From: Alphaproteobacteria bacterium
GTDB taxonomy: Bacteria; Pseudomonadota; Alphaproteobacteria; JAQWUY01
Length of the DNA stretch: 64,000 bases
Direction: 5' to 3'
Assembly (NCBI GenBank): GCA_029250225.1
Contig: JAQWUY010000027.1
Coordinates: 9,917-73,916 of the forward strand
Below, in pieces: positions 10,952-64,000 of this stretch (position 1 is the stretch's first letter; each line of letters begins with the position of its first letter). Below the pieces are notes generated by a model, which had not been told where the DNA came from, did no database searches, and saw nothing but the letters and a program-made list of their open reading frames with translations. A program made the translations under genes and the position numbers.

Positions 10952-11001
10952 CTGTTATATCCCCAAAGATTTTTGAGGATATTTTTATAGAAAAATATAT
11001 T

Positions 11002-12506: not shown

Positions 12507-12524
12507 TAAATATTTAAAACTAAT

Positions 12525-45500: not shown

Positions 45501-46932
45501 CTTTTAAAATATTTCCTGCTACTGGATAGTTTTTCCACATTCCAGATAATTTTTTATTCCAAACTCCGATTTTAGGTGCCTGATACAACCAAACATTTAC
45601 CGCATCATCAGATAATGTAACTTGGATTTTCTGCAACAATTGAAGTCTTTTATTTTTATTTATTTCTGTTTTTAATTTTTTAATTAAATCTTGGTAATGT
45701 GAATTATTGTAACCAAAATAATAATTTTTACGGGCATAAATACCATAATCTTTTGGTTCTAGGTGAGCAATTATTGTAATATCATAATCATATTTTTTAT
45801 ATGTTTGCGATAACCAAGTCCCCCAATCAACATTTTTCATTTTTACCTTAATGCCTACTTTACGCAAATAACTAGCAATCACATCAGCAGATGTTTTATA
45901 TGATGGTGGAACCGTAAATTCTAGTGTCATATTATCCGCTCCGGCTTGTTTTAATAATTTTTTTGCTAGTCCTGCATTATATGGATATTTATTAGACAAA
46001 TCAACATAGCCCTCTGCGTGTGGTGGATAATGCGAACCGATAGGTTTTGCCGAAGGCGAGACAATACTTATAAGGCTTTTTTTATCGATTGCATAATTTA
46101 ATGCTTTTCTTACTTGTGGATTTGATAAAAACTTATGCCTATTATTTAATGCTAGTAATACTTCCCCTTCTGTCGAACCGAAAACAACATTAAATCTATC
46201 TTTTTTAAATGCAGGTAATGTCATCACATCTTGATAAACAGGGAAGCCGTCAATTTCACCACTTAATATCGCAGATGATGCAGATAATGAGTCACTGATA
46301 AAGCGGAATTTTGCTGATTTAAGTTTTGCTGGTTTAGAGTGGTATTTTTCAAAACGATTAATTTTAACAAAATACCCTTTTTTCATTGAATCAAAAATAA
46401 ACGGCCCTGTGCCAATTGGATTGTTTTTGTTATTTTTATATGAACGATGATTAAATATCACCGCTTCTGGACGAGCTAAATCGTAAATCAAAGAGTCGCT
46501 AGATGATTTTAATAATACAACAACTGTATTATTATCAACTTTAAAAATTGTTTTCACATTATCAAGCAAAGACTTCCTAGGGTTAATAGAATCCTTGTTA
46601 AAAATTCTAGATATTGAAAATACAATATCATCAGCACTTAACTTATCACCATTGTGAAAATAAACATTATCTTTAATATAAAATGTATACTTTTTAAAAT
46701 CTTTTGAAATTTTGTAATCTTTTACTAATAAGTTTTTTACACCGCCACTTTCAGTAATCTGAAACAATCCTTCAAAAATGTTGCCGTAAACAACCTCATC
46801 TATTGCACTAGCCGAATTTATAGTAGGGTCAAGATGCGGAGGTTCCAACTTCATACCTATTGTTATATTATCTTTTGCCAAGGCAACAGAACTTATAAAA
46901 ATAGAAATAAGTAATATTATAATTTTCTTCAC
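45484..46932 (-). CDS. ABC transporter substrate-binding protein, family 5 (peptide/nickel/cobalt-type, NikA/DppA-like)
   Basis: 482 aa. It has a signal peptide (MKKIIILLISIFISSVALA) and an SBP_bac_5-like N-terminal region (MKLEPPHLDPTINSASAIDEVVYGNIFEGLF). Confidence 0.75.
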   Translation of the reverse strand: MKKIIILLISIFISSVALAKDNITIGMKLEPPHLDPTINSASAIDEVVYGNIFEGLFQITESGGVKNLLVKDYKISKDFKKYTFYIKDNVYFHNGDKLSADDIVFSISRIFNKDSINPRKSLLDNVKTIFKVDNNTVVVLLKSSSDSLIYDLARPEAVIFNHRSYKNNKNNPIGTGPFIFDSMKKGYFVKINRFEKYHSKPAKLKSAKFRFISDSLSASSAILSGEIDGFPVYQDVMTLPAFKKDRFNVVFGSTEGEVLLALNNRHKFLSNPQVRKALNYAIDKKSLISIVSPSAKPIGSHYPPHAEGYVDLSNKYPYNAGLAKKLLKQAGADNMTLEFTVPPSYKTSADVIASYLRKVGIKVKMKNVDWGTWLSQTYKKYDYDITIIAHLEPKDYGIYARKNYYFGYNNSHYQDLIKKLKTEINKNKRLQLLQKIQVTLSDDAVNVWLYQAPKIGVWNKKLSGMWKNYPVAGNILKDVYWQ

Positions 46933-46995
46933 ATTGACAATTCCTGAAATAAAAAATATGTAGTAATCAATGGTAAAGCTTATATAATAATGGCT

Positions 46996-47709
46996 CTATG
47001 TCAACATAAAACTATTATTTGGCATTATTTCCAAAATATTTTTGCTATTATCTTGTGGGCGATCAAGCATAAATATAGGTATCTTGCGTTTAATGGCAAC
47101 TGCAATTTTATTATAATTCATATCACCGCCTGAATTCTTGCAAACTAAGGCTTGGAAATTATATTTATCGAACAATAATTGCTCGTTATTTATACTATAA
47201 GGCCCTTTATCAACAAGGCATTCACCATTATTTATAGGAATTTTTTTCACAGTTCTAGCAATTACATAACAATTTAAATCATTATAATCACCCATTGATT
47301 TTGCCCCTAGGGTGAAAAACACATTGCCCTTAATGTTGGCTAGTTTTTGTTTTATTTCATTACTATCTTTGCAATTAATCCAATCGTCATCGTTGTTTTT
47401 TTGCCATTCTTTACGAATATAGCGAATTGTTTCAATGTCTAGTTCTTGGCTAACAATGTTAACTGTATTTGTAATATTGCTAGCATATGGGTGTGTTGCA
47501 TTAATTATTTTGGTAATATTATTTTTAATTATATAATTTTTTAAACCATTTATACTATCGTTTTGTTCAGAAAAACCACCTATTCTAACCTGTGCGTTTT
47601 TTGGTGTAGCCGGATTATCCGTTACCCCAGCAATAGAATAAATATATGGTTGAGTTAATTGCTCGCCAATTTTAATAGCATCTCTTGTTCCGCCTAATAA
47701 TAATATCAT
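46996..47709 (-). CDS. cbiJ: cobalt-precorrin-6A / precorrin-6A reductase
   Basis: 237 aa. MILLLGGTRDAIKIGEQL and INATHPYASNIT match the CobK/CbiJ conserved blocks. Confidence 0.8.
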   Translation of the reverse strand: MILLLGGTRDAIKIGEQLTQPYIYSIAGVTDNPATPKNAQVRIGGFSEQNDSINGLKNYIIKNNITKIINATHPYASNITNTVNIVSQELDIETIRYIRKEWQKNNDDDWINCKDSNEIKQKLANIKGNVFFTLGAKSMGDYNDLNCYVIARTVKKIPINNGECLVDKGPYSINNEQLLFDKYNFQALVCKNSGGDMNYNKIAVAIKRKIPIFMLDRPQDNSKNILEIMPNNSFMLT

Positions 47710-47712
47710 ATT

Positions 47713-48786
47713 TTAATCCTTAATATGTGAAATAACATCACCGCTTCTATTTACAATTAATACATTAACTTTCTTGATTTTTTTACCAATTTTTTTAGCC
47801 TGATTTTGCGCACAAATTGCTATGTGATGACCTATGTTTAAACTGGGGCTAATTGTAGTCAAAACTTCCAATGCAGTATTAGCCGTTTTAACAAAATTAA
47901 TTTCATTATCACTACCGCCTATCTGTTCAACAAATTCAGATAATTTTTGAAAATCAACCTGTGATCTAGACGAATGCAAATCACGGTTTCCTTGTGCAAG
48001 TTTTACCATTTTTGCAAACCCGCCTGATATTGTAATTTCCTCAACATTATTATTACTAGCATATTTTAACATACCCCCGACAAAATCACCCATATCTATA
48101 TATGACTCATTTTTCAAACCCAATACTTGCATTGCCTTGTTTTCAGAAGTTTTACCAGTTGAGCCAACCATATGCTGAATATTCATCGCCATCGCCACAT
48201 CTATCCCGCGGTATATTGAATGTATCCACGCACTACACGAATACGGTATAACAACCCCACTTGTGCCAAGTATTGATAATCCATCAGTTATACCTAATCT
48301 AGGGTTCCAAGTTTGCTTAGCCAAATCTTCCCCGTTTTTTATGGATACTTCAACTATCCAATTATTATGCCCTGAAATTGCCACAATGTTTTTTTCTATC
48401 ATTTGGCGAGGTTTTGGGTTTATAGCAGGTTCACCAACATCAAGCGGTAAACCTTTTTTAGTAACTGTTCCTACACCTTTGCCCGCAATAAATTTTATAT
48501 TATTTGCTTTATTCTTCTTTATTTTTACTGTTATTTCACAATTATGAGTAATATCCGGATCATCACCCGCATCTTTGATAGTAGATGCAATTGCTTGATT
48601 TTCATCAAATTCAAAATTAAAAATCTTAAACTCTTTTGCTCCCGCCGGTAAATCAATTGTAATAGTATCAACTTTTTCTTGCTTAATAATCCCGTATACA
48701 CAAGCACTAGAACAAGCTGTGGCACAGGCTCCTGTGGTCCAACCTTTCTTTAATTTTTTTGTATTTATTATTTCTTTTTCACTCAT
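47713..48786 (-). CDS. cbiD: cobalt-precorrin-5B (C1)-methyltransferase
   Basis: 357 aa. The blocks LKKGWTTGACATA, GKGVGTVTKKGLPLDVGEPAINPKPRQMI and NPRLGITDGLSILGTSGVVIPYS closely follow the Salmonella CbiD conserved regions. This enzyme is specific to the anaerobic (early cobalt insertion) route. Confidence 0.85.
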   Translation of the reverse strand: MSEKEIINTKKLKKGWTTGACATACSSACVYGIIKQEKVDTITIDLPAGAKEFKIFNFEFDENQAIASTIKDAGDDPDITHNCEITVKIKKNKANNIKFIAGKGVGTVTKKGLPLDVGEPAINPKPRQMIEKNIVAISGHNNWIVEVSIKNGEDLAKQTWNPRLGITDGLSILGTSGVVIPYSCSAWIHSIYRGIDVAMAMNIQHMVGSTGKTSENKAMQVLGLKNESYIDMGDFVGGMLKYASNNNVEEITISGGFAKMVKLAQGNRDLHSSRSQVDFQKLSEFVEQIGGSDNEINFVKTANTALEVLTTISPSLNIGHHIAICAQNQAKKIGKKIKKVNVLIVNRSGDVISHIKD

Positions 48787-48832
48787 AATAATTTATGTTA
48801 TATGATATTAATGAACAGACGATAACACTTTT

Positions 48833-49654
48833 ATGACAAACATACTAAAACTATTTTCAAAATCCAAGAAAGATTCAAAACATAATCAAAATTTTGATAG
48901 CTTTTCCCCGACTTTTGAAAAAGGTACAGTTTGGATTGCTGGTTCTGGGCCTGGTGATGTTGGCTTGCTAACAATTAATGTTTTTAATGCATTAAAAAAT
49001 GCCGATATAATCGTTTACGATGCATTAGTTAATAAAGAAATCCTAGATCTAGCAAACCATAAATGCGAAAAAGTATATGCCGGTAAACGAGGTGGCAAAC
49101 CAAGCACAAAACAAAAAGATATATGTGATATATTAATTAAGTTCGCAAAATCTGGCAAGCGAGTACTAAGATTAAAAGGCGGTGACCCTTTTGTTTTTGG
49201 TCGCGGTGGCGAAGAGGCGATAGCATTAAAACGAAATAATATTAATTTTCGCATAATACCTGGAATTACCGCAGGTATTGGCGGTATGGCATATGCAGGA
49301 ATTCCCGCCACACACCGTGAAACAAATTACACTATAACTTTTGTAACTGGACACGCAAGTTCAGGGGAAATTCCTGATAATATATGTTGGAAATCATTAT
49401 CAGCTCCATCACAAGTACTAGTATTATATATGGCATTAAAACATATTGATAATATTACAAACAAATTAATAAATTCTGGTAAAGATAAAAACACACCTGT
49501 TGCTATTGTACAAAATGCAACAATGAAAAATATGAAAATTCAAACTGGTAAATTATCTGAACTAATTGAGATTGCTAAAAACTTTGAACCGCCGGCTATT
49601 GTTGTCATAGGCGAAGTGGTTAATTTACAAGAAACATTAAATTGGCTTAAATAA
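48833..49654 (+). CDS. cobA: uroporphyrinogen-III C-methyltransferase (SUMT)
   Basis: 273 aa. VWIAGSGPGDVGLLTINVFNALKNADIIVYDALV is the class III tetrapyrrole methylase N-terminal signature, and VLRLKGGDPFVFGRGGEE is the second motif. Confidence 0.85.
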   Translation: MTNILKLFSKSKKDSKHNQNFDSFSPTFEKGTVWIAGSGPGDVGLLTINVFNALKNADIIVYDALVNKEILDLANHKCEKVYAGKRGGKPSTKQKDICDILIKFAKSGKRVLRLKGGDPFVFGRGGEEAIALKRNNINFRIIPGITAGIGGMAYAGIPATHRETNYTITFVTGHASSGEIPDNICWKSLSAPSQVLVLYMALKHIDNITNKLINSGKDKNTPVAIVQNATMKNMKIQTGKLSELIEIAKNFEPPAIVVIGEVVNLQETLNWLK

Positions 49655-49655
49655 A

Positions 49656-50963
49656 ATGACAAGTGTTCTTATTGCTGGGGCTTCAACAAATAGCGGTAAA
49701 ACAATTATTACCGCATCGATATTAAGAGCATTAAAAAATCGTGGCTTAAATGTTCGTGGTGGTAAAATCGGGCCTGATTATATCGACCCGAAATTTCACG
49801 CTATCGCTAGTGATAGTTTTTCATTAAATGTCGATGCTTGGGCAATGAATGACAATACTTTACACCGCAACCTAGCAACAATGGAACAAGATTCAGATAT
49901 TACAATAATTGAAGGAGTAATGGGATTATTTGATGGGGCTAGTGATGGTAGCGCTTCATCAGCAGAAGTTGCTAAAAAAATGGGCTTGCCTATTATTCTT
50001 TGTCTTGATGTGTGGGGGCAAAGTCAATCAATATCTGCTATTGTAAATGGCTTTGATACATTGGACAAAGACATTAAAATATCTGGAATAATATTAACTA
50101 GAATTGGCACCGAAAAACATTTAAAAATATTAAAACAATCATTACAAAAATATATCCCGCATATTCCACTAATCGGCACAATATTTCGTAATGAAATATT
50201 TGAACTAGAATCAAGACATCTTGGATTAGTACACCCATCATCGGAAAATGATAAAACATTAAATAAATTGCTAGATAAAACCGCTAATATTATTTCACAA
50301 CAAGTTGATTTAGATAAATTAATTAGCATAGGTAAAAAATCAAAAGCCATAACAAATGATAAAATTGCAATACCTAAGTTTAGTAATCATATCGCTGTGT
50401 CATATGATAAAGCGTTTAGTTTTTGCTACCCACATATTATAAACAGTTGGAAAAAAGAAGGAGCTGAGATTTCATTCTTTTCCCCACTAAATGATGAAGC
50501 ACCAGATGAAAACGCATCTTCAATTTATTTATGCGGTGGCTATCCTGAATTATACTGTGAAACCCTTGCCAAGAATAAAATATTTAAATTAGGAATGTTA
50601 AAACACGCCGAAAAAGGAACATTTATATTTGGTGAATGTGGGGGGTTTATGACACTCGGTAAATCAATCACCGATAAAAATAATGTTGAACATAAAATGC
50701 TAGGGTTGCTAGATTTAAAAACATCGTTCGCTAAGAAAAAATTACATTTATCTTATCAGAATATTAAATTATTAAAAGAGTGTAACCTAGGCACAAAAAA
50801 TTCATTATTCAAAGGACACGAATTTCACTATGCAACAATCACACATCAATCAGGTGAACCTTTGTTTGAAGTTAATAATGCTTGTAACAGTAAAAATGAA
50901 ATAGTAGGGCTGGTAAATAATAATGTAATTGGTTCATTTATTCATTTAATTGATAAAATTTAA
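49656..50963 (+). CDS. cbiA: cobyrinate a,c-diamide synthase
   Basis: 435 aa. The N-terminal AAA_26/CobB ATP-binding region is VLIAGASTNSGKTIITASILRAL, and the C-terminal GATase domain contains GECGGFMTLG. The start overlaps the cobA stop. Confidence 0.8.
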   Translation: MTSVLIAGASTNSGKTIITASILRALKNRGLNVRGGKIGPDYIDPKFHAIASDSFSLNVDAWAMNDNTLHRNLATMEQDSDITIIEGVMGLFDGASDGSASSAEVAKKMGLPIILCLDVWGQSQSISAIVNGFDTLDKDIKISGIILTRIGTEKHLKILKQSLQKYIPHIPLIGTIFRNEIFELESRHLGLVHPSSENDKTLNKLLDKTANIISQQVDLDKLISIGKKSKAITNDKIAIPKFSNHIAVSYDKAFSFCYPHIINSWKKEGAEISFFSPLNDEAPDENASSIYLCGGYPELYCETLAKNKIFKLGMLKHAEKGTFIFGECGGFMTLGKSITDKNNVEHKMLGLLDLKTSFAKKKLHLSYQNIKLLKECNLGTKNSLFKGHEFHYATITHQSGEPLFEVNNACNSKNEIVGLVNNNVIGSFIHLIDKI

Positions 50964-53463: not shown

Positions 53464-54975
53464 TTATTGATATGTTACATCGTAAGTAAATTCCTTCGCA
53501 TTATACTTAGTTCCACCTTCTAATTTCAATTTAATTTTTATTGTTCCTGAATTACCAGCACCAGTGCTAGTAGGATTAGCGACTAATTTATTCCCCGTAA
53601 AGCTACCTGTATTAATACCTGTAATCCCACCATCATCTGTCACCTCAAATGATAGAGTACCCATTTCAGTTGCATTATAAGCTACTTCACTTGAGCCGTT
53701 AGAAGAAGTAGAAAGTTTAAGATTACTTGCAGTAGGAAGAGTATATTGAGCACTATCAGCAATAGTAAGGTTAGAACCACTCAAACTAGAACCCAAATAA
53801 CCATAAGGATTGTTAGCACGATTAATTGTAACATTATAATCAACTGTTTTTTCATTATACTTATTATTAGTCGTAATTACTGCTCGAATTTTTATAGTGG
53901 TAGAAGTACCTGAACTGATAGTTGCACCGCTAAGGCTAAGAGTGCTACCTGAAATTGTCGCATTTGTAGTATTGTTTGCGTTGTTTATTGAGTATCTTAC
54001 CGTACCCATTGTATTAGAGGCATATCCAGTGCTACTAGCTAAAGCAACATCAACAGTACCGCCTAAAGTTGCTGTAAAACTAGGAGCGGTAATAGTTATG
54101 TTTTGTTTATCAAACTCTACATTGTATGTTCCAACATTACCAGAATTATACTTAGTACCGCCAGATGCTGATACTGTAACAGTTACTGAACCGGATTGAT
54201 CAGCAGAAACAACACCATTACTTATACTAAAACCAGAAGTACCCGACGGAATTGCATATGTAAGCGAACCCATTTCAGTTGTATTATAACTAGATGGTGT
54301 TACTGCTGCCACTGTTGTTCCCCATGCTACTGAGGTAGGGTTGCTAAATGATAATGCAGTTGCAGATTGTCTATCAAATGTTATAGTGTATGATCCAATA
54401 GTAGCACCAATGTATTGATTACCACCAAGTGTTGTTACTCGAACATTAATTGTACCAAATGAAGTAGCACCAGAAGCCACACCTGTAGAGCTATTCACAG
54501 AAGCACCAGTATTATTTGTGCCAATAATAGTATATGCATAAGCACCATATTTAGCTGAATTATAATCATTTGGAGCCGTAATAAGACTACTAGGCGAAGC
54601 GGAATTAGCATAAGAACTACCTGAAGCAATCACAGTTGCAGGATTTCCACTTACATTAAAACCACTCGGTGCATTAGTATTAATTGTAACATTATAATCA
54701 ACTGTTGCTGCATTATAATAACCATTAGCCGCAATTATTGCTCGAATTTGTATAGTGGCAGAAGTACCTGAACTGATAGTTGCACCGCTAAGGCTAAGAG
54801 TACTACCTGAAATTGTCGCACCTGTAGTATTGCCTGTGCTGTTTATTGAGTATGTTACCGCACCCATTGTACTAGAATCGTATCCAGTGCTACTAGCTAA
54901 AGCAACATCAACAGTACCGCCTATAGTTGCTGTAAAACTAGGAGCGGTAATACTTGTAATAACTAATCTTTTTTC
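53464..54975. repeat. tandem duplication of an approx. 860-bp unit within the surface-protein gene
   Basis: The ORF-track frames at 53897-54199 and 54755-55060 translate to about 85%-identical peptides offset by 858 bp. At the protein level, residues about 315-603 correspond to about 604-817. Confidence 0.8.
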
Positions 54976-55917
54976 TAAGTACACTTTATTTTCGCGTATA
55001 ACTTCGTCATATCTTTTATCCCAAACTTTTGTAGCGCTTGGGGTAGTATTTACTCGTTGATTTAACTTTTCTCCAAAATTATATTTAAAATTTAAAAATA
55101 ATTCTTCAGAAGAATTATTTTGATCAGAATTATCATACTCACCACCGAAACTTATGTGCGGTGTTAAAAAATATTCCGCGCGCAATTTAACCCCTGATTT
55201 CCTATCGACATCGCCAGAAAAACTATATCTTTTCAAATTAATTTTTAAATTATCAACCTTTGGCATTCTTCCGGAAACACCAAAATCATGACCATTTAAA
55301 ACTCTCTCACCATTCATAAAAGCAGATTGCCCTCTTTGGTATAAATTTCCATAAAAATCGTATTTAGGTGTACTCAGACTTAAGCCAAGTGAATGCCTAG
55401 AATGTGGTGATGAAAATAAATTAGATGACGAAAGCAAACCATCTTGAGAGCTTTTTAAATCATAAAATGTATTAATCTCAAGCATAGCTTCTTTACCACC
55501 AACAAAATCTTTGAATTCAGGAGAAACATCTACCAATGTACGATGTCCTAAACCAATGTTTAAAGTTTTGCCATTATTTGAATCATATGTAAAGTTTCCC
55601 TGAAGAAAAGAAAGTTTTTTTAATGTTTCATTAAGTACTATAAAACCTGAAAAATTGTATTCTGAAAAAGATTGCATACCACCTTTAACCCACTTTATAC
55701 CTAGGTTATCGGCGTCTTTATTTATTTTCTCAATTAATTTTTGGCTAAATAAAGAATAGGGATTTACTTCACTAGTAATCTGTTTTTCACTTTCATATGC
55801 TATTTTATCATCATATGTAATTCCATCAGCATATGTCAATGAAGTGAAATTTTGAGATATTATCAAAATAGAATAAATTGAAATAAAAGAAATAAGTTTA
55901 TATATATATTTTGTCAT
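53464..55917 (-). CDS. large surface protein with N-terminal beta-rich outer-membrane domain and C-terminal tandem Ig-like (Big-type) repeats; inverse-autotransporter (intimin/invasin)-like architecture
   Basis: 817 aa. A signal peptide (MTKYIYKLISFISIYSILIISQNFTSLTYA) is followed by about 280 aa with alternating-hydrophobic beta-strand patterns (YFLTPHISFGGEY; LFLNFKYNF). Five Ig-like modules of about 95 aa follow. They are organised as a roughly 290-aa three-module unit present in about 1.8 tandem copies (ITAPSFTAT(I/L)GGTVDVALASSTGY...VDYNVTIN). Confidence 0.5.
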   Translation of the reverse strand: MTKYIYKLISFISIYSILIISQNFTSLTYADGITYDDKIAYESEKQITSEVNPYSLFSQKLIEKINKDADNLGIKWVKGGMQSFSEYNFSGFIVLNETLKKLSFLQGNFTYDSNNGKTLNIGLGHRTLVDVSPEFKDFVGGKEAMLEINTFYDLKSSQDGLLSSSNLFSSPHSRHSLGLSLSTPKYDFYGNLYQRGQSAFMNGERVLNGHDFGVSGRMPKVDNLKINLKRYSFSGDVDRKSGVKLRAEYFLTPHISFGGEYDNSDQNNSSEELFLNFKYNFGEKLNQRVNTTPSATKVWDKRYDEVIRENKVYLEKRLVITSITAPSFTATIGGTVDVALASSTGYDSSTMGAVTYSINSTGNTTGATISGSTLSLSGATISSGTSATIQIRAIIAANGYYNAATVDYNVTINTNAPSGFNVSGNPATVIASGSSYANSASPSSLITAPNDYNSAKYGAYAYTIIGTNNTGASVNSSTGVASGATSFGTINVRVTTLGGNQYIGATIGSYTITFDRQSATALSFSNPTSVAWGTTVAAVTPSSYNTTEMGSLTYAIPSGTSGFSISNGVVSADQSGSVTVTVSASGGTKYNSGNVGTYNVEFDKQNITITAPSFTATLGGTVDVALASSTGYASNTMGTVRYSINNANNTTNATISGSTLSLSGATISSGTSTTIKIRAVITTNNKYNEKTVDYNVTINRANNPYGYLGSSLSGSNLTIADSAQYTLPTASNLKLSTSSNGSSEVAYNATEMGTLSFEVTDDGGITGINTGSFTGNKLVANPTSTGAGNSGTIKIKLKLEGGTKYNAKEFTYDVTYQ

Positions 55918-56038: not shown

Positions 56039-56899
56039 TTAAATTAATATATTTTTATCAAAACAAGATAAGACTTTTTTTACAACATTAACATCATTAC
56101 CTGTTTTATCTAGCTGTGGGTTATATTCAACTACTTCTAGAACATCAAGGCCTTCAAGATTTGTGTTGTTAAATGAATCCATAACATCATTTAAAATCAA
56201 TCCATTTTTTACTGGCGTTCCAACAGCTGTTATTTCTTGTACATCTAGGCAATCCATATCAAAGCTAATACCGAATTTAATGCCTTTATTTTGAAAACTA
56301 CTTATTACAGATTGAAAACATTTTGCAAATCCGACTTTTTTTACTTCCTCAGCATAAAATACTTTAATGTTTAGTTTTTCAGCTAATTCTCTCTCTTTGC
56401 TTTCGTAGCACCTTGTACCAATAAAAGCAACATTTTCAGGTTTAACTTTTATTCCATTATATAATATATTAGTTAAACGGTTGTCACCATAACCCATTAA
56501 ACCGGCAACGGGCATTCCGTGCGGATTAGATGAATCAGATGTTTCAAATGTATGCAAATCAAAGTGCGCATCAACCCACAACACCCCGTAATCTCCTTCG
56601 TCTTTTGTTGCACCTGACCAAGTTCCAAAACCTGATGAATGGTCACCCCCGATAACAATTGGAAAGTGATTTTTTTGTTTTTGTTCATAAACTGCACGAG
56701 CGAGGTTTTTGCAAGATTCTGCCAAATTATCAACACACTCTTTTCGGCGTTTTGAATTATCCATTGTAATCATAGTCGCCATTTTATTTTTTACTTGTGG
56801 TATATTATCACTAATTACGCAAGGGGCTTTTTCACACCCAATAGTTCCAGCACCAGCACCAAATTCAGCACCTATGTAAAATATTTCTTTTTTAATCAT
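56039..56899 (-). CDS. rocF: arginase-family ureohydrolase (most likely arginase)
   Basis: 286 aa. The manganese-ligand motifs GGDHS (IVIGGDHSSGFG), DAHxD (WVDAHFDLHT) and SFDxD (ISFDMDCLD) are present. It is translationally coupled (1-nt overlap) to the upstream ornithine cyclodeaminase gene. Confidence 0.7.
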   Translation of the reverse strand: MIKKEIFYIGAEFGAGAGTIGCEKAPCVISDNIPQVKNKMATMITMDNSKRRKECVDNLAESCKNLARAVYEQKQKNHFPIVIGGDHSSGFGTWSGATKDEGDYGVLWVDAHFDLHTFETSDSSNPHGMPVAGLMGYGDNRLTNILYNGIKVKPENVAFIGTRCYESKERELAEKLNIKVFYAEEVKKVGFAKCFQSVISSFQNKGIKFGISFDMDCLDVQEITAVGTPVKNGLILNDVMDSFNNTNLEGLDVLEVVEYNPQLDKTGNDVNVVKKVLSCFDKNILI

Positions 56900-57936
56900 T
56901 ACTCCACCAATAAGCTAAATAAATTTTTCGGATCTTTAATATCAGGTATCATTTCATAAATTTCACCAATATTATACTTTTCAGACAATGTATGAATTAC
57001 ACTTAATGCAGATAAATCTTCTAATGCAATGCCAACACTATCAAAAACTGTTATTTCATCATCATTATTACGACCGACTTTATCACCGCGGATTATTTCG
57101 TAAAAATGAGCATCAACTATGCTACGCGCTTTTTCTTCATCAAAAACTTGAATTTCGCCTTCTATAAATGATTGATCAAAAAATTCAACTGCCACATAAG
57201 AATTTTCTAGAATTTCTTTTTGTAATTCAGTTTTTCCCGGACAATCGCCACCCAAACCATTAATATGTTGACCTTTTGTAAGCCAATCATATTTTATTAC
57301 TTCTGCGTGAGCCTTGCAAGCCGTACAAACAATTATAATATCTGCCCCTGTTACCGCAGATTTTGCATCATTACAACGAACTAAATCAACTTTATGACCA
57401 GCAAAATTTAATTTCATATTTTGTTCATACTTATCCATTGCTTTAGGGTCTGTATCGAAATATCTAATCTCTTTGATATCGCGAATTAACTTATGAGCGA
57501 TAGTTTGATATTCAGACTGCGCGCCGTTACCAATAACCGCCAATGTGCTAGCATCTTTTCTAGCCATAAGGTCACTAGCGATTGCCGATACACTAGCAGT
57601 CCTAAGAGCTGTTAAAAGTGTCATCTCTGTTATTAATATTGGGTAACCGTCATCTACATTTAATAACTGTCCAGTTGCAACAACAGTTTGTTTCCCAACA
57701 GCTGTATTTTTAGGGTGTCCATTTACACACTTAAAAGCAAATTTTTCTTTGCCACAAACAGGCATTAATTCCAAAACACCGCCATCAACATGAAATGCTG
57801 GCCTAGGTATATTTTGGAAACTTTCCCAATTTGTAAAATCTTTTTTCAATTGTGCCATTATATCTGCAAAAATAGCTTCGATGCCTTGCTTATGAATCAA
57901 TTGTGTCATCATTTTTACATTTAGTAAACGAACCAT
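56899..57936 (-). CDS. ocd: ornithine cyclodeaminase (OCD/mu-crystallin family)
   Basis: 345 aa. It has an OCD_Mu_crystall-like fold with a Rossmann motif (LAVIGNGAQSEYQ) and a conserved N-terminal substrate region. Confidence 0.7.
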   Translation of the reverse strand: MVRLLNVKMMTQLIHKQGIEAIFADIMAQLKKDFTNWESFQNIPRPAFHVDGGVLELMPVCGKEKFAFKCVNGHPKNTAVGKQTVVATGQLLNVDDGYPILITEMTLLTALRTASVSAIASDLMARKDASTLAVIGNGAQSEYQTIAHKLIRDIKEIRYFDTDPKAMDKYEQNMKLNFAGHKVDLVRCNDAKSAVTGADIIIVCTACKAHAEVIKYDWLTKGQHINGLGGDCPGKTELQKEILENSYVAVEFFDQSFIEGEIQVFDEEKARSIVDAHFYEIIRGDKVGRNNDDEITVFDSVGIALEDLSALSVIHTLSEKYNIGEIYEMIPDIKDPKNLFSLLVE

Positions 57937-58104
57937 AGCATTAATTCCTTAAAGTTAAATTTAATAGAAAAAAGTATCATACTATAAAAATATTGTAAAT
58001 TATAATTTTGCAATAATTTTTAAAAATTTTGCATTAACATTGACTTTATTTCTGTAAAATGGTTATATCTTTTATACTTATTATTTTTATGTAGGAGAAT
58101 TATT

Positions 58105-58653
58105 ATGACAGTATTATCAAACCGCATTACAATATCAACTAACAATACAATAGCAAAAAATATCTTATTAGCATTTTTAGGTTCAATAATAATCTCTATT
58201 TCAACACAAATTATGGTTCCAATGTTTCCAGTGCCAATGACAATGCAAACATTCGCTGTATTATGTGTAGGTATGTCACTTGGTTCTAGGTGGGGTTCAA
58301 TATCTACAATGATGTATTTAGCACAAGGTGCTATGGGATTGCCCGTGTTCGCAGGTGGTAAATTTGGATTGATTACATTATTTGGGCCAACTGGTGGATA
58401 TTTATTTGGTTATGTATTTAGTGCTTTCGTTGTTGGTTATATGGCGGAAAAAGGTTGGAATAAATCATTTATAAAAATATTTACAGCAATGCTAGCAAGT
58501 AATGCTGTTTTATACACATTGGGGTTAATTCAACTAGGCATTGTTGTTGGTTGGGATAAACCAATCCTTGAATGGGGTTTATATCCATTCATACTAGGAA
58601 TGCTTGCTAAAACAACAGTCGCATCTGGATTATTCTCAAAAACTATCAAATAG
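58105..58653 (+). CDS. bioY: biotin transporter BioY (ECF-type S component)
   Basis: 182 aa with six TM segments. The conserved BioY block is VPMTMQTFAVLCVGMSLGSRWG. Confidence 0.8.
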   Translation: MTVLSNRITISTNNTIAKNILLAFLGSIIISISTQIMVPMFPVPMTMQTFAVLCVGMSLGSRWGSISTMMYLAQGAMGLPVFAGGKFGLITLFGPTGGYLFGYVFSAFVVGYMAEKGWNKSFIKIFTAMLASNAVLYTLGLIQLGIVVGWDKPILEWGLYPFILGMLAKTTVASGLFSKTIK

Positions 58654-58687
58654 AATTAATTAATAATTATATTAATATAAAATTATA

Positions 58688-58720
58688 AAGCCGAAGAATT
58701 GTAAACTCTTCGGCTTTTTA
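58688..58720. terminator. bidirectional hairpin terminator between bioY (+) and fhs (-)
   Basis: The stem AAGCCGAAGA / TCTTCGGCTT (10 bp) has loop ATTGTAAAC and is followed by TTTTA. On the opposite strand it is followed by a TTTATAATT tract. Confidence 0.65.
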
Positions 58721-58737
58721 AATTTATCAAGAACTTA

Positions 58738-60414
58738 TTAAAACAAGCCTTGGATATTGCCTTTATCATCTAATACGATAGTTTCAGCTGATGGCTTCTT
58801 GGGCAAACCAGGCATTGTCATAATTGCACCTGTAATTGCGACGATGAAACCAGCTCCGGCAGAAAGGCGAACTTCACGAACATTCACACTATGTCCGCTC
58901 GGCGCACCCATTAAAGAAGGATCTGTTGAAAATGACATTTGAGTTTTTGCCATACAAATTGGTAAATTACCGTAACCTTCATCTTCCCATTGTTTTAATT
59001 GTTGGCGTACTTTTGTATCAGCTGTTGCTTCATCAGCACGGTAAATTTCTTTGCAAATTGTGTTAATTTTATCAAATAACGGCATATCATCTTTGTAAAG
59101 TGGTTTAAAGTTTGCTTCACCTTTTTCAACAACACTAACAATATGCTTTGCTAATTCTTTTGTACCTTTCGAACCTTCGCCCCAATGCGTAGCCTCAAAA
59201 GCAACCACACCCATTTTAGTACAAAAATCTTTAACCATTTTTATTTCTGCGTCTGTGTCTAGGATAAATTTATTAATCGCAACTGTTACCGGAACACCAA
59301 ATTTCGCAACATTTTCTAGGTGACGACCTAAATTACACAAGCCGTCTTTTAATGCGTCTAAATCTTCTTGACCTAGTTCATCTTTTTTACGCCCTCCGTG
59401 CATTTTTAATGCTCGAATTGTTGCCACTAATACAACAGCTTCTGGCTTTAAACCTGCTTTGCGACATTTAATATCAAAGAATTTTTCCGCTCCTAAATCA
59501 GCACCAAAACCTGCCTCTGTCACAACATAATCAGCAATTTTTAATGCAGATTTTGTTGCCGAAACTGAATTGCAACCGTGAGCAATATTTGCAAAAGGCC
59601 CACCGTGTACAAATGCAGGATTATTTTCCAATGTTTGCACTAAGTTAGGCATTAATGCTTCTTTCAATAATACAGTCATTGGACCATCGGCTTTTAATTC
59701 GCGGGCTGTAATTGGTTTTTTCTCACGCGTGTAGGCAACAACAATATCACCTAAGCGTTTTTGTAAATCTTGCAAACCATCGGCAAGGCAGAAAATAGCC
59801 ATTACCTCTGATGCTACTGTGATATCAAAACCGGTTTGACGCGGATAACCATTGCCAACTCCACCGATTGAAGAAACAATATCACGCAATGCACGGTCGT
59901 TCATATCTAGGACACGGCGCCATTGGACACGGCGAACATCAATACCCAATTCATTGCCCCAATGAATATGATTATCTAACATAGCAGACAATAAGTTATG
60001 TGCTGATGTAATTGCGTGAAAATCACCAGTAAAATGTAAATTAATATCGTCCATAGGAACAATTTGTGCATAACCGCCACCAGCGGCACCACCTTTTATA
60101 CCAAAGCAAGGGCCTAGTGATGGTTCGCGAAGTGCAACCATTGCATTTTTACCAATTGCATTTAAACCGTCACCCAAACCAACTGTTGTTGTTGTTTTTC
60201 CTTCACCGGCGGGGGTTGGTGAAATCGCTGTGACCAAAATTAACTTGCCATCTTTTTTAGACTTAATACTTTCTAACCATTCAAAAGAAACTTTACCCTT
60301 GTGTGGCCCGAACTGCAATACAGCATCTTGTGGAATTCCTGCTTTTTTTGCAACCTCTATAATTGGTTTCATATTTGCTTTGCGAGCAATCTCAATATCA
60401 CTTTTTACCATCAC
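58738..60414 (-). CDS. fhs: formate--tetrahydrofolate ligase (formyl-THF synthetase)
   Basis: 558 aa. The N-terminus ([24 protein letters not shown]) and the P-loop region ([21 protein letters not shown]) are canonical FTHFS signatures. Confidence 0.9.
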
Positions 60415-60483
60415 ACTCTCCTTTAAACGAAATTCAAATTAATTGTTATAATATAGAACTAAAAAAGTAAAGAAATTTAATTA

Positions 60484-61425
60484 TTATAAATTAACCTTAA
60501 ACCCTTTACCTTTTAAATCAAATTTACCGTCGGCAACGCTATACATCCAATTTGCTGATTTTTTTAACCCCCCTAACGGGTACATATGCATTTGTTTAAT
60601 TAAACAATCTTTGTCCAAATGCGATGCAACAGCTAGTTGGCGAACTAATACATCAGGTTCAGAACAAGGGGCATTAATATATTTACCTATAAATGTATCT
60701 TTTAATATCAATTTTGCTGTGGTGCTTGGTTGCTTTGTAAGCATACGCATTGAGGGGCCAACTCCACACATTTTTGCAAGTTTTAATAAAGTTTTAACAC
60801 TTGCCAAACCGGGAACACCAATATGTATTGGTAATTCGTTACCCGCATCACGAATTCTTTTTTCCCATTTAAGGCAAGGTTCAGATTCAAATGCAAATTG
60901 AGTAGCAATATAAAGTTTCATATCAGTATCTTTTGCATAAGCATTTTTTTCACGAATAGCTTTCATACAATCCGCATCTGGGATATCTGGCGAACCTTCT
61001 GGGTGTCCTGCAACTCCCATTTTTTTAATACCGTATTTTTCAAATAATCCTGTTTTTAAAACTTCCATAGAACAAGAAAAATCTCCGACCTGATTATCAA
61101 CCCCACCGCCTACTAACAATCCTTCTTCTACACCAGTTTCATCTTGTAATAATTGTAAATTTTGCTCTAAAAATTTTGCTGATGGAATAGAGCGGGCTGC
61201 AAAATGGGGAACTGGGTTGAAGCCTTCTTGTTTTAATTTTTTTACAGTTTTTATTGTATCGGCAAAATCTGAATTAGGTAAAAATGTAACATAAACCGTT
61301 GTTCCAGTTCTTAAAATATCGTTAAAATTAGCTATTTTTTCTGCACCTCTTGGTGTTTCTTCAATAGTTGCTTTTTTTACAAAATCTATAATTATTTGTT
61401 TTTCTTGTTCTTTACTTAAATGCAT
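60484..61425 (-). CDS. metF: 5,10-methylenetetrahydrofolate reductase (MetF family)
   Basis: 313 aa TIM-barrel MTHFR-like protein with FAD-binding region blocks (VYVTFLPNS; HFAARSIPSAKFLEQNL; IATQFAFESEP). Confidence 0.75.
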   Translation of the reverse strand: MHLSKEQEKQIIIDFVKKATIEETPRGAEKIANFNDILRTGTTVYVTFLPNSDFADTIKTVKKLKQEGFNPVPHFAARSIPSAKFLEQNLQLLQDETGVEEGLLVGGGVDNQVGDFSCSMEVLKTGLFEKYGIKKMGVAGHPEGSPDIPDADCMKAIREKNAYAKDTDMKLYIATQFAFESEPCLKWEKRIRDAGNELPIHIGVPGLASVKTLLKLAKMCGVGPSMRMLTKQPSTTAKLILKDTFIGKYINAPCSEPDVLVRQLAVASHLDKDCLIKQMHMYPLGGLKKSANWMYSVADGKFDLKGKGFKVNL

Positions 61426-61428
61426 AAG

Positions 61429-63462
61429 CTAACTCCTTCTTCTGCGATTTTGACGCGAAGTTCTTGATTTTGAACTACCGCCTGACGATACTTTTAATTT
61501 TTTAGGTGGCAATTCTACAACTTGTTGTAAATTAATATACGGATCTGAATTATTCGGGATTGCCATTGCATCAACAAAATATCCTTGGAAAGAAGATTCT
61601 AGTGCAGTTTCGATTTTTTCAATTTTACTAACTAGATTTTCAATTTCATTACGAGAATCTTTGTTTAATAAAGCAATCCTTGCACCACTTCCCGCCGAAT
61701 TACCAATTGAACTAACTTCATTCATATTACAATCTGGGATTAAACCTAAAACAAGGGCATATTTAATATCTATGTGTGAACCAAAAGCACCAGCTAGGCT
61801 GATTTTTTCACACTTATCACCGTAGTAATCTTCCATTATTTTACAGCCTGCCCACAATGCACCTTTTGCCAATTGAATTGCCCTTACATCACCTTGTGTA
61901 ATGCGAACTTCAACATCAAGTTCATTAACTGGACGGTGTAATATATAATCAAACACACGACCATTTGGAATAATACGATCGGTTTTTGATGCCATATCAC
62001 CATCAATTATACCATCAGATGATATAATTCCAGCTAGATACATTTGTGCAAGTACCTCAATAATACCAGAACCACAAATTCCAGTTACCCCTATTTTTTT
62101 AACACTTGTATTAAATTCTTCCTCATCAGACCAAAGCTCCGTCCCAATAACAGCAAAGCGTGGTTCAAGTGTTTTTTTGTCAATGCGCACTCTTTCAATT
62201 GCACCTGGTGCCGCCCTTTGTCCGCAAACAATTTGCGCTCCTTCTAGGGCTGGCCCTGTTGGTGAAGAACAAGCAAATAATTTATCTTTATTCCCAAATA
62301 TAATTTCTGCATTTGTACCAACATCAACTATTAAATGCCGTTTTTCACCTTTATCAGGGCGAACTGCCAAGGCAACCGCTGCTGCGTCTGCTCCTACGTG
62401 TCCGGCAATGCAAGGAAGAACATATACAAAACCATTGGGATTTAAATTCAATAAATCACCAAAATCGCTTACTTGTTTGTTAACGGCATTTTCTTCTTCT
62501 AGGTCAAAAGGTGAAAAGCCAAGACCCAAGGGTGATAAACCTAAAAATAAATGGTGCATTACTGGGTTGCCAACTATAACGGTTTCAACAATCAATTGTT
62601 GTGCTTGGGTTTCATTCATATTCGCCAATCCATCACGAATAGATTCACTAAATAGGCTAGATAATGTATCACGAACAACTTTTGTCATTTCTTTATCACC
62701 GCCTTTATTCATCATTGCATATGAAACACGACTCATTAAATCTTCACCAAATCTAATCTGGGGATTCATAGCACCAACAGATGCCATTACTTTACCATCT
62801 TTTAAACGAACTAAATTACACGATATTGTGGTTGAACCTAAGTCAACAGCAAATCCGTAAAGATCTGATTTAGGATTATCTAAGATATCTATCAATCTGT
62901 CATTTCTTACCACAACACCAATTTCATCAGATGTATTATTGAAATCAAAATTAATATTATCGCTGAACGATTTTATATTTAAAGAATGCTCATTACTTAA
63001 TAATTTAATAATATTTTGAATAACATTTTTACTTTTATCAATGTTGGAAATATTCAGCTGATAAACTTGTGTAATTGGCTTTATTTCGATGTCAATCTTT
63101 GTAACGGGTTTGCGAATAACTTGCTTGTGTACTTGGCTATCAGGTGGCACATCTATTACCATATCGCCTTTTAACATAGAGCAACAAGCAAGCCTACGAC
63201 CGTCTTTGATATTACCTTTTTTATTTTGATATTCTGTTTCTGTATCACTCCAACTACTAAGGTTTTTATTTCTAGCATTAATTTTAAACTTTGGGAAATC
63301 GCCTTCGCTAGGTTCAACTTGACATCGTCCACAGATACCACGCCCACCACAAACACTATCAATATCAACTCCTAATGAACGGGCAATATCAAGTAAATTA
63401 GAATTCCGAGAAAATTCACCTCGCTTACCTGAGGGAGTAAAAACTACTTTATACTTATCCAT
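61429..63462 (-). CDS. RACo-like reductive activator of corrinoid proteins (N-terminal plant-type 2Fe-2S ferredoxin + ASKHA-fold ATPase; RamA/AcsV-like)
   Basis: 677 aa. The N-terminal roughly 90 aa carry a 2Fe-2S ferredoxin Cys pattern (CGGRGICGRCQV ... C). The remaining about 550 aa are Gly-rich with actin/ASKHA-like phosphate loops (VDLGSTTISCNLV; DVGTNAEII; GICGSGIIEV). This matches the DUF4445/RACo architecture. Confidence 0.7.
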   Translation of the reverse strand: MDKYKVVFTPSGKRGEFSRNSNLLDIARSLGVDIDSVCGGRGICGRCQVEPSEGDFPKFKINARNKNLSSWSDTETEYQNKKGNIKDGRRLACCSMLKGDMVIDVPPDSQVHKQVIRKPVTKIDIEIKPITQVYQLNISNIDKSKNVIQNIIKLLSNEHSLNIKSFSDNINFDFNNTSDEIGVVVRNDRLIDILDNPKSDLYGFAVDLGSTTISCNLVRLKDGKVMASVGAMNPQIRFGEDLMSRVSYAMMNKGGDKEMTKVVRDTLSSLFSESIRDGLANMNETQAQQLIVETVIVGNPVMHHLFLGLSPLGLGFSPFDLEEENAVNKQVSDFGDLLNLNPNGFVYVLPCIAGHVGADAAAVALAVRPDKGEKRHLIVDVGTNAEIIFGNKDKLFACSSPTGPALEGAQIVCGQRAAPGAIERVRIDKKTLEPRFAVIGTELWSDEEEFNTSVKKIGVTGICGSGIIEVLAQMYLAGIISSDGIIDGDMASKTDRIIPNGRVFDYILHRPVNELDVEVRITQGDVRAIQLAKGALWAGCKIMEDYYGDKCEKISLAGAFGSHIDIKYALVLGLIPDCNMNEVSSIGNSAGSGARIALLNKDSRNEIENLVSKIEKIETALESSFQGYFVDAMAIPNNSDPYINLQQVVELPPKKLKVSSGGSSKSRTSRQNRRRRS

Positions 63463-63540
63463 AAAAAGTTAAACCTAACTATAATATTAAAGATATCTAA
63501 TTGTATTATACTAATTTTTTATGCCAAAAAAAATATAGTA

Positions 63541-64000
63541 TTAACCCCTACGGCGGGCTCTTTGGCGACCCGCTCTTGCACCGCGACTTTCATTTTCTGC
63601 TACTGGTTCACGATATCTTTTAATCCAACGAGTGCAATCTGGATCTTGGCCTGCAATAACATCGGCACCACGAATTAATTCCATTTCTTTTTCGTGGCAA
63701 GGGTTCATAATGGCACTAGTCATACCAGCACCAATCGCCATTGACAAGAATGATGCATTGATGCCATTTCTGTTGGGTAAACCAAAACTAACATTTGATG
63801 CGCCACAAGTTGTGTTTACCTTTAATTCATTTCGTAAACGATGGATTAAATCTAATGCTTTTCGTCCTGCTATGTTAATCGCACCAACAGGCATTACCAA
63901 CGGATCAACAACAACATCTTGTGGTTTTATTCCATAATCCTGCGCTCTTTCGACAATTTTTTTTGCCACAGCGTAACGAACATTAGGATCTTGTGAAATT
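63541..64000 (-). CDS. partial (C-terminal ~150 aa only) pterin-binding methyltransferase domain, MetH module-2 / MtrH-AcsE-like; the gene continues beyond the window edge
   Basis: The reading frame stays open from 63541 to the window end with no stop. The ORF-track Met at 63969 is a GTG inside a longer frame (upstream residues ...ISQDPNVRYAV). The block GASNVSFGLPNRNGINASFLSMAIGAGMTSAIMNP aligns with the conserved GxSNxSFG...FLxxAIxxGMDxxIVN region of cobalamin-dependent methionine synthase pterin-binding domains and methyl-THF:corrinoid methyltransferases. Confidence 0.65.
   Translation of the reverse strand, partial: ISQDPNVRYAVAKKIVERAQDYGIKPQDVVVDPLVMPVGAINIAGRKALDLIHRLRNELKVNTTCGASNVSFGLPNRNGINASFLSMAIGAGMTSAIMNPCHEKEMELIRGADVIAGQDPDCTRWIKRYREPVAENESRGARAGRQRARRRG

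Follow-up and report, generated by a model that had tools for sequence, protein, structure and literature searches.

A putative mtgD-activase-metF2-fhs operon of the split cobalamin methyltransferase system MtgBCDE in an AT-rich alphaproteobacterial lineage

The window analyzed here, a stretch of 64,000 nucleotides (nt) from an alphaproteobacterium (contig JAQWUY010000027.1, positions 9,917 to 73,916), carries at its right edge (58738-64000) four co-directional genes, all on the minus strand, that encode a pterin-binding methyltransferase (mtgD), a RACo/RamA-like activase, a divergent methylenetetrahydrofolate reductase (MTHFR; metF2), and formate-tetrahydrofolate ligase (fhs). We consider it likely, at roughly 75%, that this cluster is the tetrahydrofolate (THF)-side and maintenance half of MtgBCDE, the split cobalamin methyltransferase system of proteobacteria. 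The mtgD-activase-metF2-fhs layout points to the oxidation of methyl groups to formate with a gain of ATP.

The genes of the window can be recognized as mtgD, a RamA-like activase gene, metF2, and fhs from the published descriptions of the Mtg system. In Phaeobacter inhibens, Price et al. (2018) described a three-part methionine synthase consisting of a homocysteine (Hcy)-binding module, a pterin-binding module, and a B12 protein, and a RamA-like ferredoxin/DUF4445 protein and a DUF1638 protein are further requirements for methionine synthesis in this species (PMC5764234). In Ruegeria pomeroyi, Mausz et al. (2025) reported a requirement for MtgC and MtgD in methionine synthesis and equally in glycine betaine demethylation with the MttB-family protein MtgB, and found MetF2, encoded downstream of mtgD, to be the protein most strongly induced on N-osmolytes (PMC12478193). 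The original prediction for this cluster had named three candidate systems; two of them, an MttB-type demethylase and a split methionine synthase, are one dual-function system, MtgBCDE (PMC12478193, PMC5764234), whereas the third, the Wood-Ljungdahl pathway, did not stand. Because the split B12 methyltransferase system is already on record from work of 2018 and 2025, the finding, though real, is an ordinary one, and the earlier view of the arrangement as unusual was overstated, the same family being present in thousands of proteobacterial sequences. What is new is limited to a lineage-specific rearrangement of the operon, an unusual active-site loop in MetF2, and a charge pattern of protein tails and heads.

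The folate-side methyltransferase MtgD

The pterin-binding open reading frame (ORF) is cut by the window edge, so that the window carries the C-terminal 152 of the 301 amino acids (aa) of its product, and the gene starts about 446 nt past the edge. Six exact-match contigs contain the complete gene (read at L001:9017-9922), which encodes a stand-alone protein of 301 aa. This protein scored 374.5 bits against NF005719 (cutoff 259; residues 21-286), is 67% identical to MtgD of S. meliloti, and shares 73-78% identity with many homologues in Alpha- and Gammaproteobacteria, members of a family of thousands of sequences for which NCBI uses the name 'methyltetrahydrofolate cobalamin methyltransferase'. 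In MtgD, the lineage of the window shows no change at any of the 109 alignment columns with a conservation of 97% or more in other species. The best matches among solved structures were the folate module of MetH (1q7m) and the methyltransferase MeTr (2yck and 1f6y).

MtgD is a single-module protein, with no Hcy-binding, B12-binding, or S-adenosylmethionine (AdoMet)-activation domain on its polypeptide. A full-length canonical MetH was rejected, as the folate module alone is present and the score against the metH model TIGR02082 was 138.7 bits (cutoff 1010.85), with alignment only to model positions 326-593. Dihydropteroate synthase (DHPS) was likewise rejected, with 24 bits against TIGR01496 (cutoff 162.6). 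Complete at 301 aa and standing alone, the edge gene does not encode a full-length MetH or a DHPS, in line with the prediction, and on the basis of these sequence matches its product is MtgD, a stand-alone methyl-THF:corrinoid methyltransferase. The prediction was also correct that the polypeptide stops where MetH enters its B12 module; MtgD aligns with residues 299-554 of T. maritima MetH. In terms of canonical MetH, MtgD represents the folate module, and the separate corrinoid protein MtgC represents the B12 cap and B12 domain, although MtgC groups outside the B12 domains of MetH according to Mausz et al. (PMC12478193).

The RACo/RamA-like activase

The 677-aa product of the second gene matched RACo of Carboxydothermus hydrogenoformans (3zyy) over residues 1-638 with an E-value of 9e-77. 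Pfam scores were 282 bits for PF14574 and 132 bits for PF17651, and PF00111 also matched. The four 2Fe-2S ligands (C38, C44, C47, and C93), which align with the cysteines of 3zyy, and the ASKHA motifs D207-G-S-T-T, D380-V-G-T-N, and G461-x-C-G-S are invariant in the RACo homologues (n = 20-26). The AlphaFold2 (AF2) model, with a predicted local distance difference test (pLDDT) score of 84, had 3zyy and 4c1n as its top Foldseek matches (E 4e-48), followed by ASKHA kinases, and its N-terminal domain matched a ferredoxin. Both the ASKHA fold and the four cysteines expected of a RACo-type protein were thus found, and the 677-aa protein is a predicted RACo-type 2Fe-2S/ASKHA reductive activase. Its scores against the curated models of AcsV (NF040756; 329.5 bits, cutoff 800) and RamA (TIGR04270; 109.7 bits, cutoff 500) were below the cutoffs, which places it in the proteobacterial DUF4445 clade and not strictly in either of those families.

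The protein shares the four-part architecture of C. hydrogenoformans RACo (3zyy, 4c1n), with an N-terminal 2Fe-2S domain, and also has ASKHA ATP-binding motifs. Unlike 3zyy, it has a predicted disordered Arg-rich C-terminal tail and belongs to an organism with aerobic respiration genes. Its partner also differs: MtgC, instead of the corrinoid iron-sulfur protein (CoFeSP) served by RACo or the methylamine corrinoid protein served by Methanosarcina RamA. In contrast to canonical MetH, in which reactivation is driven by AdoMet and flavodoxin, reactivation here would be driven by ATP and ferredoxin.

The divergent reductase MetF2 and Fhs

The best sequence match of MetF2 in the Protein Data Bank (PDB) was 7xg9, the S6MTHFR of Sphingobium lignivorans SYK-6 (E 4e-46, about 30% identity), whereas canonical MTHFRs gave E-values of 2e-3 or worse. 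The same was seen with the AF2 model (pLDDT 87), for which Foldseek gave template modeling (TM) scores of 0.82/0.89 to 7xg9 and about 0.6 to the canonical MTHFRs of E. coli, Thermus, and human. The 'type 4' class of MTHFRs was founded on S6MTHFR, an enzyme that oxidizes methyl-THF (CH3-THF) and shows hardly any reaction with NADH, its NADH site being blocked by Leu48-Pro49 and the Pro268 loop (PMC11868366).

The signature residues of the window protein and 41 homologues (42 sequences) were compared using S6MTHFR numbering. The MetF2 family retains Glu21, Thr23, Thr46, Leu48-Pro49, Gln175-Phe176, Cys219, and Tyr267-Pro268-x-Gly-Gly of S6MTHFR. In the NADH-blocking loop β2-α3 (VTFLP), V46-T47-(F)-L49-P50 is invariant across the 42 MetF2 homologues. 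MetF2 additionally has an extra segment of about 25 aa following helix α8 compared with S6MTHFR. From sequence and model, MetF2 appears to be a divergent MTHFR-fold flavoprotein that is closest to the CH3-THF-oxidizing type 4 (S6MTHFR) lineage. Like S6MTHFR (7xg9/7xlf), it is encoded beside an enzyme that makes CH3-THF from a methyl donor; unlike S6MTHFR, it is coupled to a corrinoid-dependent methyltransferase in place of a direct THF-dependent O-demethylase (LigM, for example).

The product of the fourth gene is a canonical Fhs, scoring 920.6 bits against NF010030 (cutoff 652) over profile positions 2-557 of 557. Its start is probably the ATG at 60411, giving a product of 557 aa, the length called on exact-match contigs.

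Organization of the cluster and its surroundings

The coordinates of the features are given in Table 1. The gaps between the genes are 78 nt (mtgD/RACo), 3 nt (RACo/MTHFR-like gene), and 69 nt (MTHFR-like gene/fhs), so the predicted co-directional block with gaps of 3-78 nt was borne out, as were the four domain assignments by Pfam and curated models. Pfam matches of the cluster genes had E-values from 1e-9 to 1e-267, well beyond chance. The sole strong terminator-like site in 57900-64000 is a hairpin 21 nt past the fhs stop, within the 84-nt gap before the convergent bioY; two further terminator-like sites in this interval are weak (5-6 bp stems) and lie within coding sequence. With one strong terminator, located after fhs, the four genes mtgD-RACo-metF2-fhs look like a single transcription unit.

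Table 1. Positions of the cluster genes and associated features (window numbering unless a contig is named)
Feature	Position	Strand	Characteristics
fhs, formate-tetrahydrofolate ligase	58738-60414	minus	PF01268, 888 bits
MTHFR-like gene (MetF2)	60484-61425	minus	313 aa; PF02219, only 32 bits
RACo/RamA-like activase gene	61429-63462	minus	677 aa; Fer2 (PF00111), Raco_middle (PF17651), RACo_C_ter (PF14574)
mtgD 3' part, pterin-binding ORF	63541-64000, runs off window edge	minus	PF00809, profile positions 150-243 of 244
Intrinsic-terminator-like hairpin	58687-58717	minus	14-bp stem and T-rich tail
MtgD Arg-rich C-terminal tail (VAENESRGARAGRQRARRRG)	63541-63603	minus	7 Arg in last 20 aa, P ~2e-6
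RACo Arg-rich C-terminal tail (VSSGGSSKSRTSRQNRRRRS)	61429-61491	minus	6 Arg in last 20 aa, P ~3e-5
mtgC	247,633-248,313 of ena:ERZ28548091:north_1__contig_32919_pilon	same strand as mtgD-fhs	226 aa; PF02607 and PF02310

No regulatory RNA was found upstream of mtgD in an Rfam gathering search of the window and L001 or in a search at E<=1 of L001:8650-9100. Sigma-70 promoter scans inside the window gave no more sites than the shuffled expectation. The spacer between apbE and mtgD was slightly above it (13 versus 7.9 expected), which is uninformative because the DNA is AT-rich.

Exact-match contigs extend the region beyond position 64000 and contain the remainder of mtgD, followed by apbE and nqrM in divergent orientation, a xanthine/uracil permease gene, and nqrA-F, with yidD and folE further out. 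The exact RACo protein is present on nine public contigs from several samples, and the species, which the original prediction had taken to be apparently host-associated, was found in many metagenome assemblies; a literature search with the sample accessions gave no result. The lineage is alphaproteobacterial and AT-rich (31% GC), with contigs of 1.1-1.6 Mb, and the organism has aerobic respiration genes for cytochrome oxidase and the Na+-translocating NADH:quinone oxidoreductase (Na+-NQR). The cobalamin biosynthesis genes that had been noted in the window were also confirmed (CobQ, CobD, CbiA, a TP_methylase, CbiD, and CbiJ).

On one long-read contig of 1.12 Mb polished with pilon (L010), RACo, nqrC, and nqrF are each broken into two ORFs (10985-13017, 3737-4532, and 5808-7032, respectively). 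The three genes are whole on short-read contigs from the same organism, and the splits are therefore frameshift assembly errors and not pseudogenes.

The corrinoid protein MtgC

A split arrangement had been predicted to need a separate corrinoid protein, and such a protein, MtgC, was found in the same genome. MtgC is a highly conserved protein. The metagenome contigs were searched for DNA that encodes the invariant MtgC peptide GTVKGDIHDIGKN in the preferred codons of the organism only, which yielded 109 loci. These were ranked by tetranucleotide correlation with the window, for which known same-organism loci gave 0.90-0.98 and relatives 0.74 or less. Two loci, L199 and L196, had correlations of 0.92 and 0.91 and were 99.4% identical to each other; in L199, mtgC-DUF1638-PF13769 is flanked by housekeeping genes. 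An artificial 'AT-biased' consensus query for MtgC was discarded, its trial on MtgD having ranked the window protein 48th of about 70.

A member from each of the 90%-identity clusters of MtgC, the DUF1638 protein, and the PF13769 protein lies on the 1,122,778-bp contig that carries mtgD, and the accessions of these clusters (MDG1153851-853) belong to the same metagenome-assembled genome (MAG) series as MtgD (MDG1153932) and RACo (MDG1153931). On this contig, mtgC is followed by the genes for PF07796 (DUF1638) and PF13769, and mtgD-fhs lies at 119,694-125,400 (ena:ERZ28548091:north_1__contig_32919_pilon). An MtgC-type corrinoid protein is thus encoded in the same genome as mtgD-RACo-metF2-fhs, at a separate locus. 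The prediction that the corrinoid protein and the substrate methyltransferase would lie just upstream of position 64000 failed: apbE, nqrM, the permease gene, and nqrA-F are located there, and mtgC is 122 kb away on the opposite side of the window, about 63 kb past its left edge.

The 99-aa PF13769 protein, annotated as 'virulence factor', is encoded nearly always directly after DUF1638 (L207:10739-11669; L199:1616-2546; most of L018-L094) and remains with mtgC-DUF1638 in the organism of the window. Separately, marine metagenome contigs of 24-29% GC (L146, L112, L151, L180, L154, L143, L174, L194, and L172) contain an MtgC gene with no mtgD or RACo nearby, and their MtgC proteins are 81-83% identical to the S. 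meliloti/Azoarcus reference proteins. No MtgC was reported for the Pelagibacteraceae by Mausz et al. (PMC12478193).

Comparative gene order

GTDB species genomes were scanned with the RACo alignment, giving 80 loci, which were mapped by tblastn with references from the annotated S. meliloti and Azoarcus clusters; 64 of them have at least 5 kb upstream of RACo. In these 64 loci, mtgD was directly upstream of RACo in 57, and the loci contained mtgC in 43, DUF1638 in 45, the PF13769 gene in 48, an acetogen-like MetF/MetV pair in 35, and a type-4-like MetF in seven. Among all 80 loci, an MttB-family gene lay within 10 kb of RACo in 31, purU in six, and fhs in five, and MtgE was linked to the RACo operon in three, being mostly unlinked in other species. 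These counts indicate that the usual operon order is (mtgB) mtgC-DUF1638-PF13769-metF-mtgD-RACo.

The order mtgD-RACo-metF2(-fhs) was observed in only 2 of 73 species loci, namely L015 (a MAG with 70% RACo identity) and Hwanghaeella, and the order mtgD-RACo-metF2-fhs together with divergent apbE-nqrM is kept in the relatives L011, L015, L095, and L206. The mtgD-RACo-metF-fhs order is a rare lineage variant. In Hwanghaeella sp. 1Z406 (L016:6055-12960), one operon contains genes for an ArsR/SAM-methyltransferase regulator, a canonical metF, an Hcy S-methyltransferase, mtgD, RACo, and metF2, and thus holds the two MTHFR types side by side. Its Hcy S-methyltransferase is short (294 aa) and matches the first 165 positions of PF02574 only.

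The cluster resembles MtgBCDE of R. pomeroyi DSS-3 and of P. inhibens in its stand-alone pterin-binding MtgD and its DUF4445/RACo-type activase with N-terminal 2Fe-2S. Other shared features are a metF paralogue in the mtgD operon (in R. pomeroyi immediately downstream of mtgD, here behind RACo), a small MtgC (PF02607 and PF02310) encoded with DUF1638 at a different locus, and cobalamin biosynthesis genes in the genome. Unlike in the two model roseobacters, where mtgD and ramA are at separate loci, mtgD, the activase gene, metF2, and fhs are in one operon. Putative orthology to SPO1863, SPO2041, and SPO1862 was drawn through the S. meliloti and roseobacter homologues.

Proposed mechanism and direction

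In the proposed mechanism, a substrate methyltransferase would load a methyl group onto MtgC, the candidate being MtgB, of the MttB family, with glycine betaine or a similar quaternary amine as methyl donor. MtgD would move the methyl group between MtgC-bound cobalamin and THF, and the RACo/RamA-like protein would reduce MtgC from the inactive Co(II) back to the Co(I) state by means of ATP and its 2Fe-2S cluster. MetF2 would oxidize the resulting CH3-THF to methylene-THF (CH2-THF), and after conversion by FolD, which would be encoded elsewhere, Fhs would free the carbon as formate with a gain of ATP. The MtgC/MtgD pair probably can also work in reverse, feeding an Hcy-binding module for methionine, as in R. 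pomeroyi and P. inhibens, the two species with genetic evidence on the roles of the pair.

The oxidative reading, in which methyl groups end up as formate, is the better bet for a direction that the original prediction had left open. It is favored by the type of MTHFR, by the presence of PurU or fhs in sister operons, with PurU, an irreversible formyl-THF hydrolase, encoded near the Mtg operon in sister loci, and by the analogous induction of R. pomeroyi MetF2 on N-osmolytes.

Several observations weigh against the proposed system and its oxidative direction. In MetF2, Arg78 of S6MTHFR, which holds Leu48, is replaced by an invariant Ser79, although the preceding Arg (Arg77 of S6MTHFR) is conserved. 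In helix α8, the Cys219 equivalent C220 is invariant, and Phe215 is replaced by Leu and variable across the subfamily; in loop β8-α11, Y282-P283-x-G285-G286 is invariant, and Phe269 is replaced by Leu. Within the catalytic triad, Glu22 and Gln176 are invariant, whereas Asp107 (Asp120 in E. coli) is replaced by an invariant Gly, which sits in a GGG loop (residues 106-110) with pLDDT below 50 at 107-110. All characterized MTHFRs, including S6MTHFR, carry the catalytic folate-binding Asp where the MetF2 subfamily has Gly-Gly(-Gly). As several S6MTHFR signature residues are absent, the activity and direction of MetF2 are not certain. The Fhs reaction is reversible. In Hwanghaeella, a cultured relative, the mtgD-RACo-metF2 trio directly follows canonical metF and the Hcy-methyltransferase gene, a biosynthetic context.

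The same applies to the components not located. Compared with roseobacter Mtg, MtgB (PF06253) was not found in the window, in about 10 kb beyond it, or in 20 kb around mtgC, and MtgE (PF02574) was not found in the inspected regions; these negatives cover roughly 115 kb, in a genome whose size is 1.12 Mb or more. FolD was not seen. In the window and about 10 kb beyond it in same-organism loci, tblastn gave no match to MtgC, DUF1638, MtgB, MtgE, MetF/MetV, or PurU, even at E<=10.

Alternative explanations

The strongest alternative is a purely biosynthetic role, in which formate would pass through Fhs, FolD, and MetF2 to CH3-THF and on through MtgD and MtgC to an Hcy-binding module, with RACo replacing the AdoMet reactivation domain of a split methionine synthase. 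P. inhibens needs homologous MtgD, MtgC, and RamA-like proteins for methionine prototrophy (PMC5764234), about 70% of marine MtgBCD genomes are without MetH (PMC12478193), and neither MetH nor MetE was seen in the window. In Hwanghaeella, the position of the trio after canonical metF and the Hcy-methyltransferase gene shows a link to methionine synthesis, but the same operon provides a separate canonical MetF for the reductive step beside MetF2. The MTHFR type also argues against a supply route in the window organism, as MetF2 is S6MTHFR-like with a conserved Leu-Pro loop that blocks the NADH site, and S6MTHFR was not seen to reduce CH2-THF (PMC11868366). Moreover, PurU in sister operons can serve the oxidative direction only, and MetF2 of R. 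pomeroyi is induced by N-osmolytes and not by methionine need (PMC12478193). We therefore regard a purely biosynthetic role as unlikely.

An oxidative pathway could alternatively start from another methyl donor, such as a different quaternary amine, a methylamine, or, through a CmuA-like protein, a methyl halide, which would bring it closer to the cmu pathway of Methylorubrum extorquens CM4 (CmuA, CmuB, MetF2, FolD, and PurU). The two resemble each other in passing a corrinoid-bound methyl group to THF and, by a type 4 MTHFR, to CH2-THF, formyl-THF, and formate; the cmu pathway, too, combines a type 4 MTHFR (CM4MTHFR) and a formyl-THF exit enzyme with a methylcobalamin:THF methyltransferase (PMC11868366). 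MtgC-type corrinoid proteins are reported to be nearest to CmuA, and mtgCD genomes hold up to seven MttB paralogues of unassigned specificity (PMC12478193). The window cluster differs from the cmu pathway in having no CmuA fusion protein, Fhs in place of PurU, and a dedicated RACo-type activase. No CmuA-like gene was found near mtgC or mtgD of the window organism, and the MttB-family neighbors in 31 of the 80 related loci are 45-76% identical to S. meliloti MtgB, which makes such a donor quite improbable.

A reading of the cluster as the decaying remnant of a small genome, cut off from a working corrinoid system, seems hardly credible. The cluster is detached from mtgC, and RACo, nqrC, and nqrF are split on the long-read contig, but these splits are assembly errors, and intact identical proteins are encoded on nine short-read contigs. 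None of the cofactor or ATPase motifs is damaged, the same genome has an intact mtgC-DUF1638, the cluster is kept in at least four related lineages, and the Arg-rich tails are retained under strong AT pressure.

A Wood-Ljungdahl methyl branch, with Fhs, MetF, an AcsE-like MeTr, and RACo serving CoFeSP, has a negligible probability: acetogens hold the same four enzyme families, and the best-studied MtgD and RACo homologues (1f6y, 2yck, 3zyy, and 4c1n) belong to this pathway, but the scores against the carbon monoxide dehydrogenase/acetyl-CoA synthase (CODH/ACS) methyltransferase model (NF040758; 143 bits, cutoff 370) and AcsV (NF040756; 329 versus 800) are below the cutoffs, the corrinoid partner is of the small MtgC type (PF02607 and PF02310) and not CoFeSP, and no CODH/ACS (acs/cdh) genes were found in the roughly 115 kb inspected of an organism with aerobic respiration genes.

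Charged termini of the Mtg proteins

The C-termini of MtgD and RACo in the window are rich in Arg (Table 1), with P values calculated against a background of 3.2% Arg in the window proteins of this 31%-GC genome. The RACo tail is predicted to be disordered (pLDDT below 50 at residues 658-677), and the family consensus ends in GGRRRRRR. Similar termini occur throughout the Mtg families, with a median of seven Arg in the last 20 aa of MtgD (n = 73), a median of six at the C-terminus of RACo (n = 83), a median of seven in the first 30 aa of MtgB (n = 31), and about five at the C-terminus of MtgE (n = 4). No Arg-rich terminal tail was found on MetF, the DUF1638 protein, or the PF13769 protein. The N-terminus of MtgC, on the other hand, is acidic and conserved, with a median net charge of -9.5 over the first 25 aa (n = 48); in the window organism, MtgC (L207:10001-10681) begins MSDDLNLNDLNDQELMEQMWDDLYDGLADEIAEG, and its first 34 residues together carry a net charge of about -12. 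The Mtg-system literature searched contained no mention of this pattern.

We tentatively propose, while holding it to be somewhat less probable than its opposite, that the Mtg partners may share an electrostatic docking code through these tails. The Arg tails of MtgD, RACo, MtgE, and MtgB would bind the acidic head of MtgC, so that alternative partners could alternate on one cobalamin hub. As a smaller point held with the same reserve, MetF2 may oxidize CH3-THF by a modified mechanism, given that the essential folate-binding Asp is replaced by Gly.

Other genes in the window

Positions 42538-50963 encode an ABC transporter of the oligopeptide/nickel type, with SBP_bac_5, a pair of permeases, and a double ATPase, that adjoins cbiJ-cbiD and a divergent TP_methylase-cbiA pair. 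It is a candidate importer of cobalt or nickel, in keeping with the original suspicion of a cobalt importer. Downstream of fhs, in the 56039-57936 region of the window and in the relatives L011 and L095, there is an arginase gene, which in the window is paired with ornithine cyclodeaminase and separated from fhs by bioY, convergent to fhs; it has no evident functional link to the cluster.

The window additionally encodes an 817-aa surface protein (53464-55917) with an intimin/invasin-type beta-barrel match (PF11924 on a related contig) and two long internal repeats ('ITAPSFTATxGGTVDVALASSTGY...'), as well as a TPS-domain protein of 957 aa (33561-36434). A lone 256-aa ORF at 51370-52140 matches PF05396 (Phage_T7_Capsid) and adjoins a DUF1491 gene, with no further phage genes noted nearby.

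Conclusions

These results would extend MtgBCDE, which ties together cobalamin, methionine synthesis, and the oxidation of glycine betaine methyl groups, to an uncharacterized AT-rich alphaproteobacterial lineage that makes its own cobalamin. For genome annotation, clusters of this kind should be read as MtgD, a RamA-like activase, and MetF2, and not as a partial MetH, DHPS, or Wood-Ljungdahl genes, and the corrinoid partner may be encoded more than 100 kb away. The pattern of Arg-rich tails and an acidic MtgC head, if real, would offer a testable approach to the sharing of one corrinoid protein by several methyltransferases and its activase.

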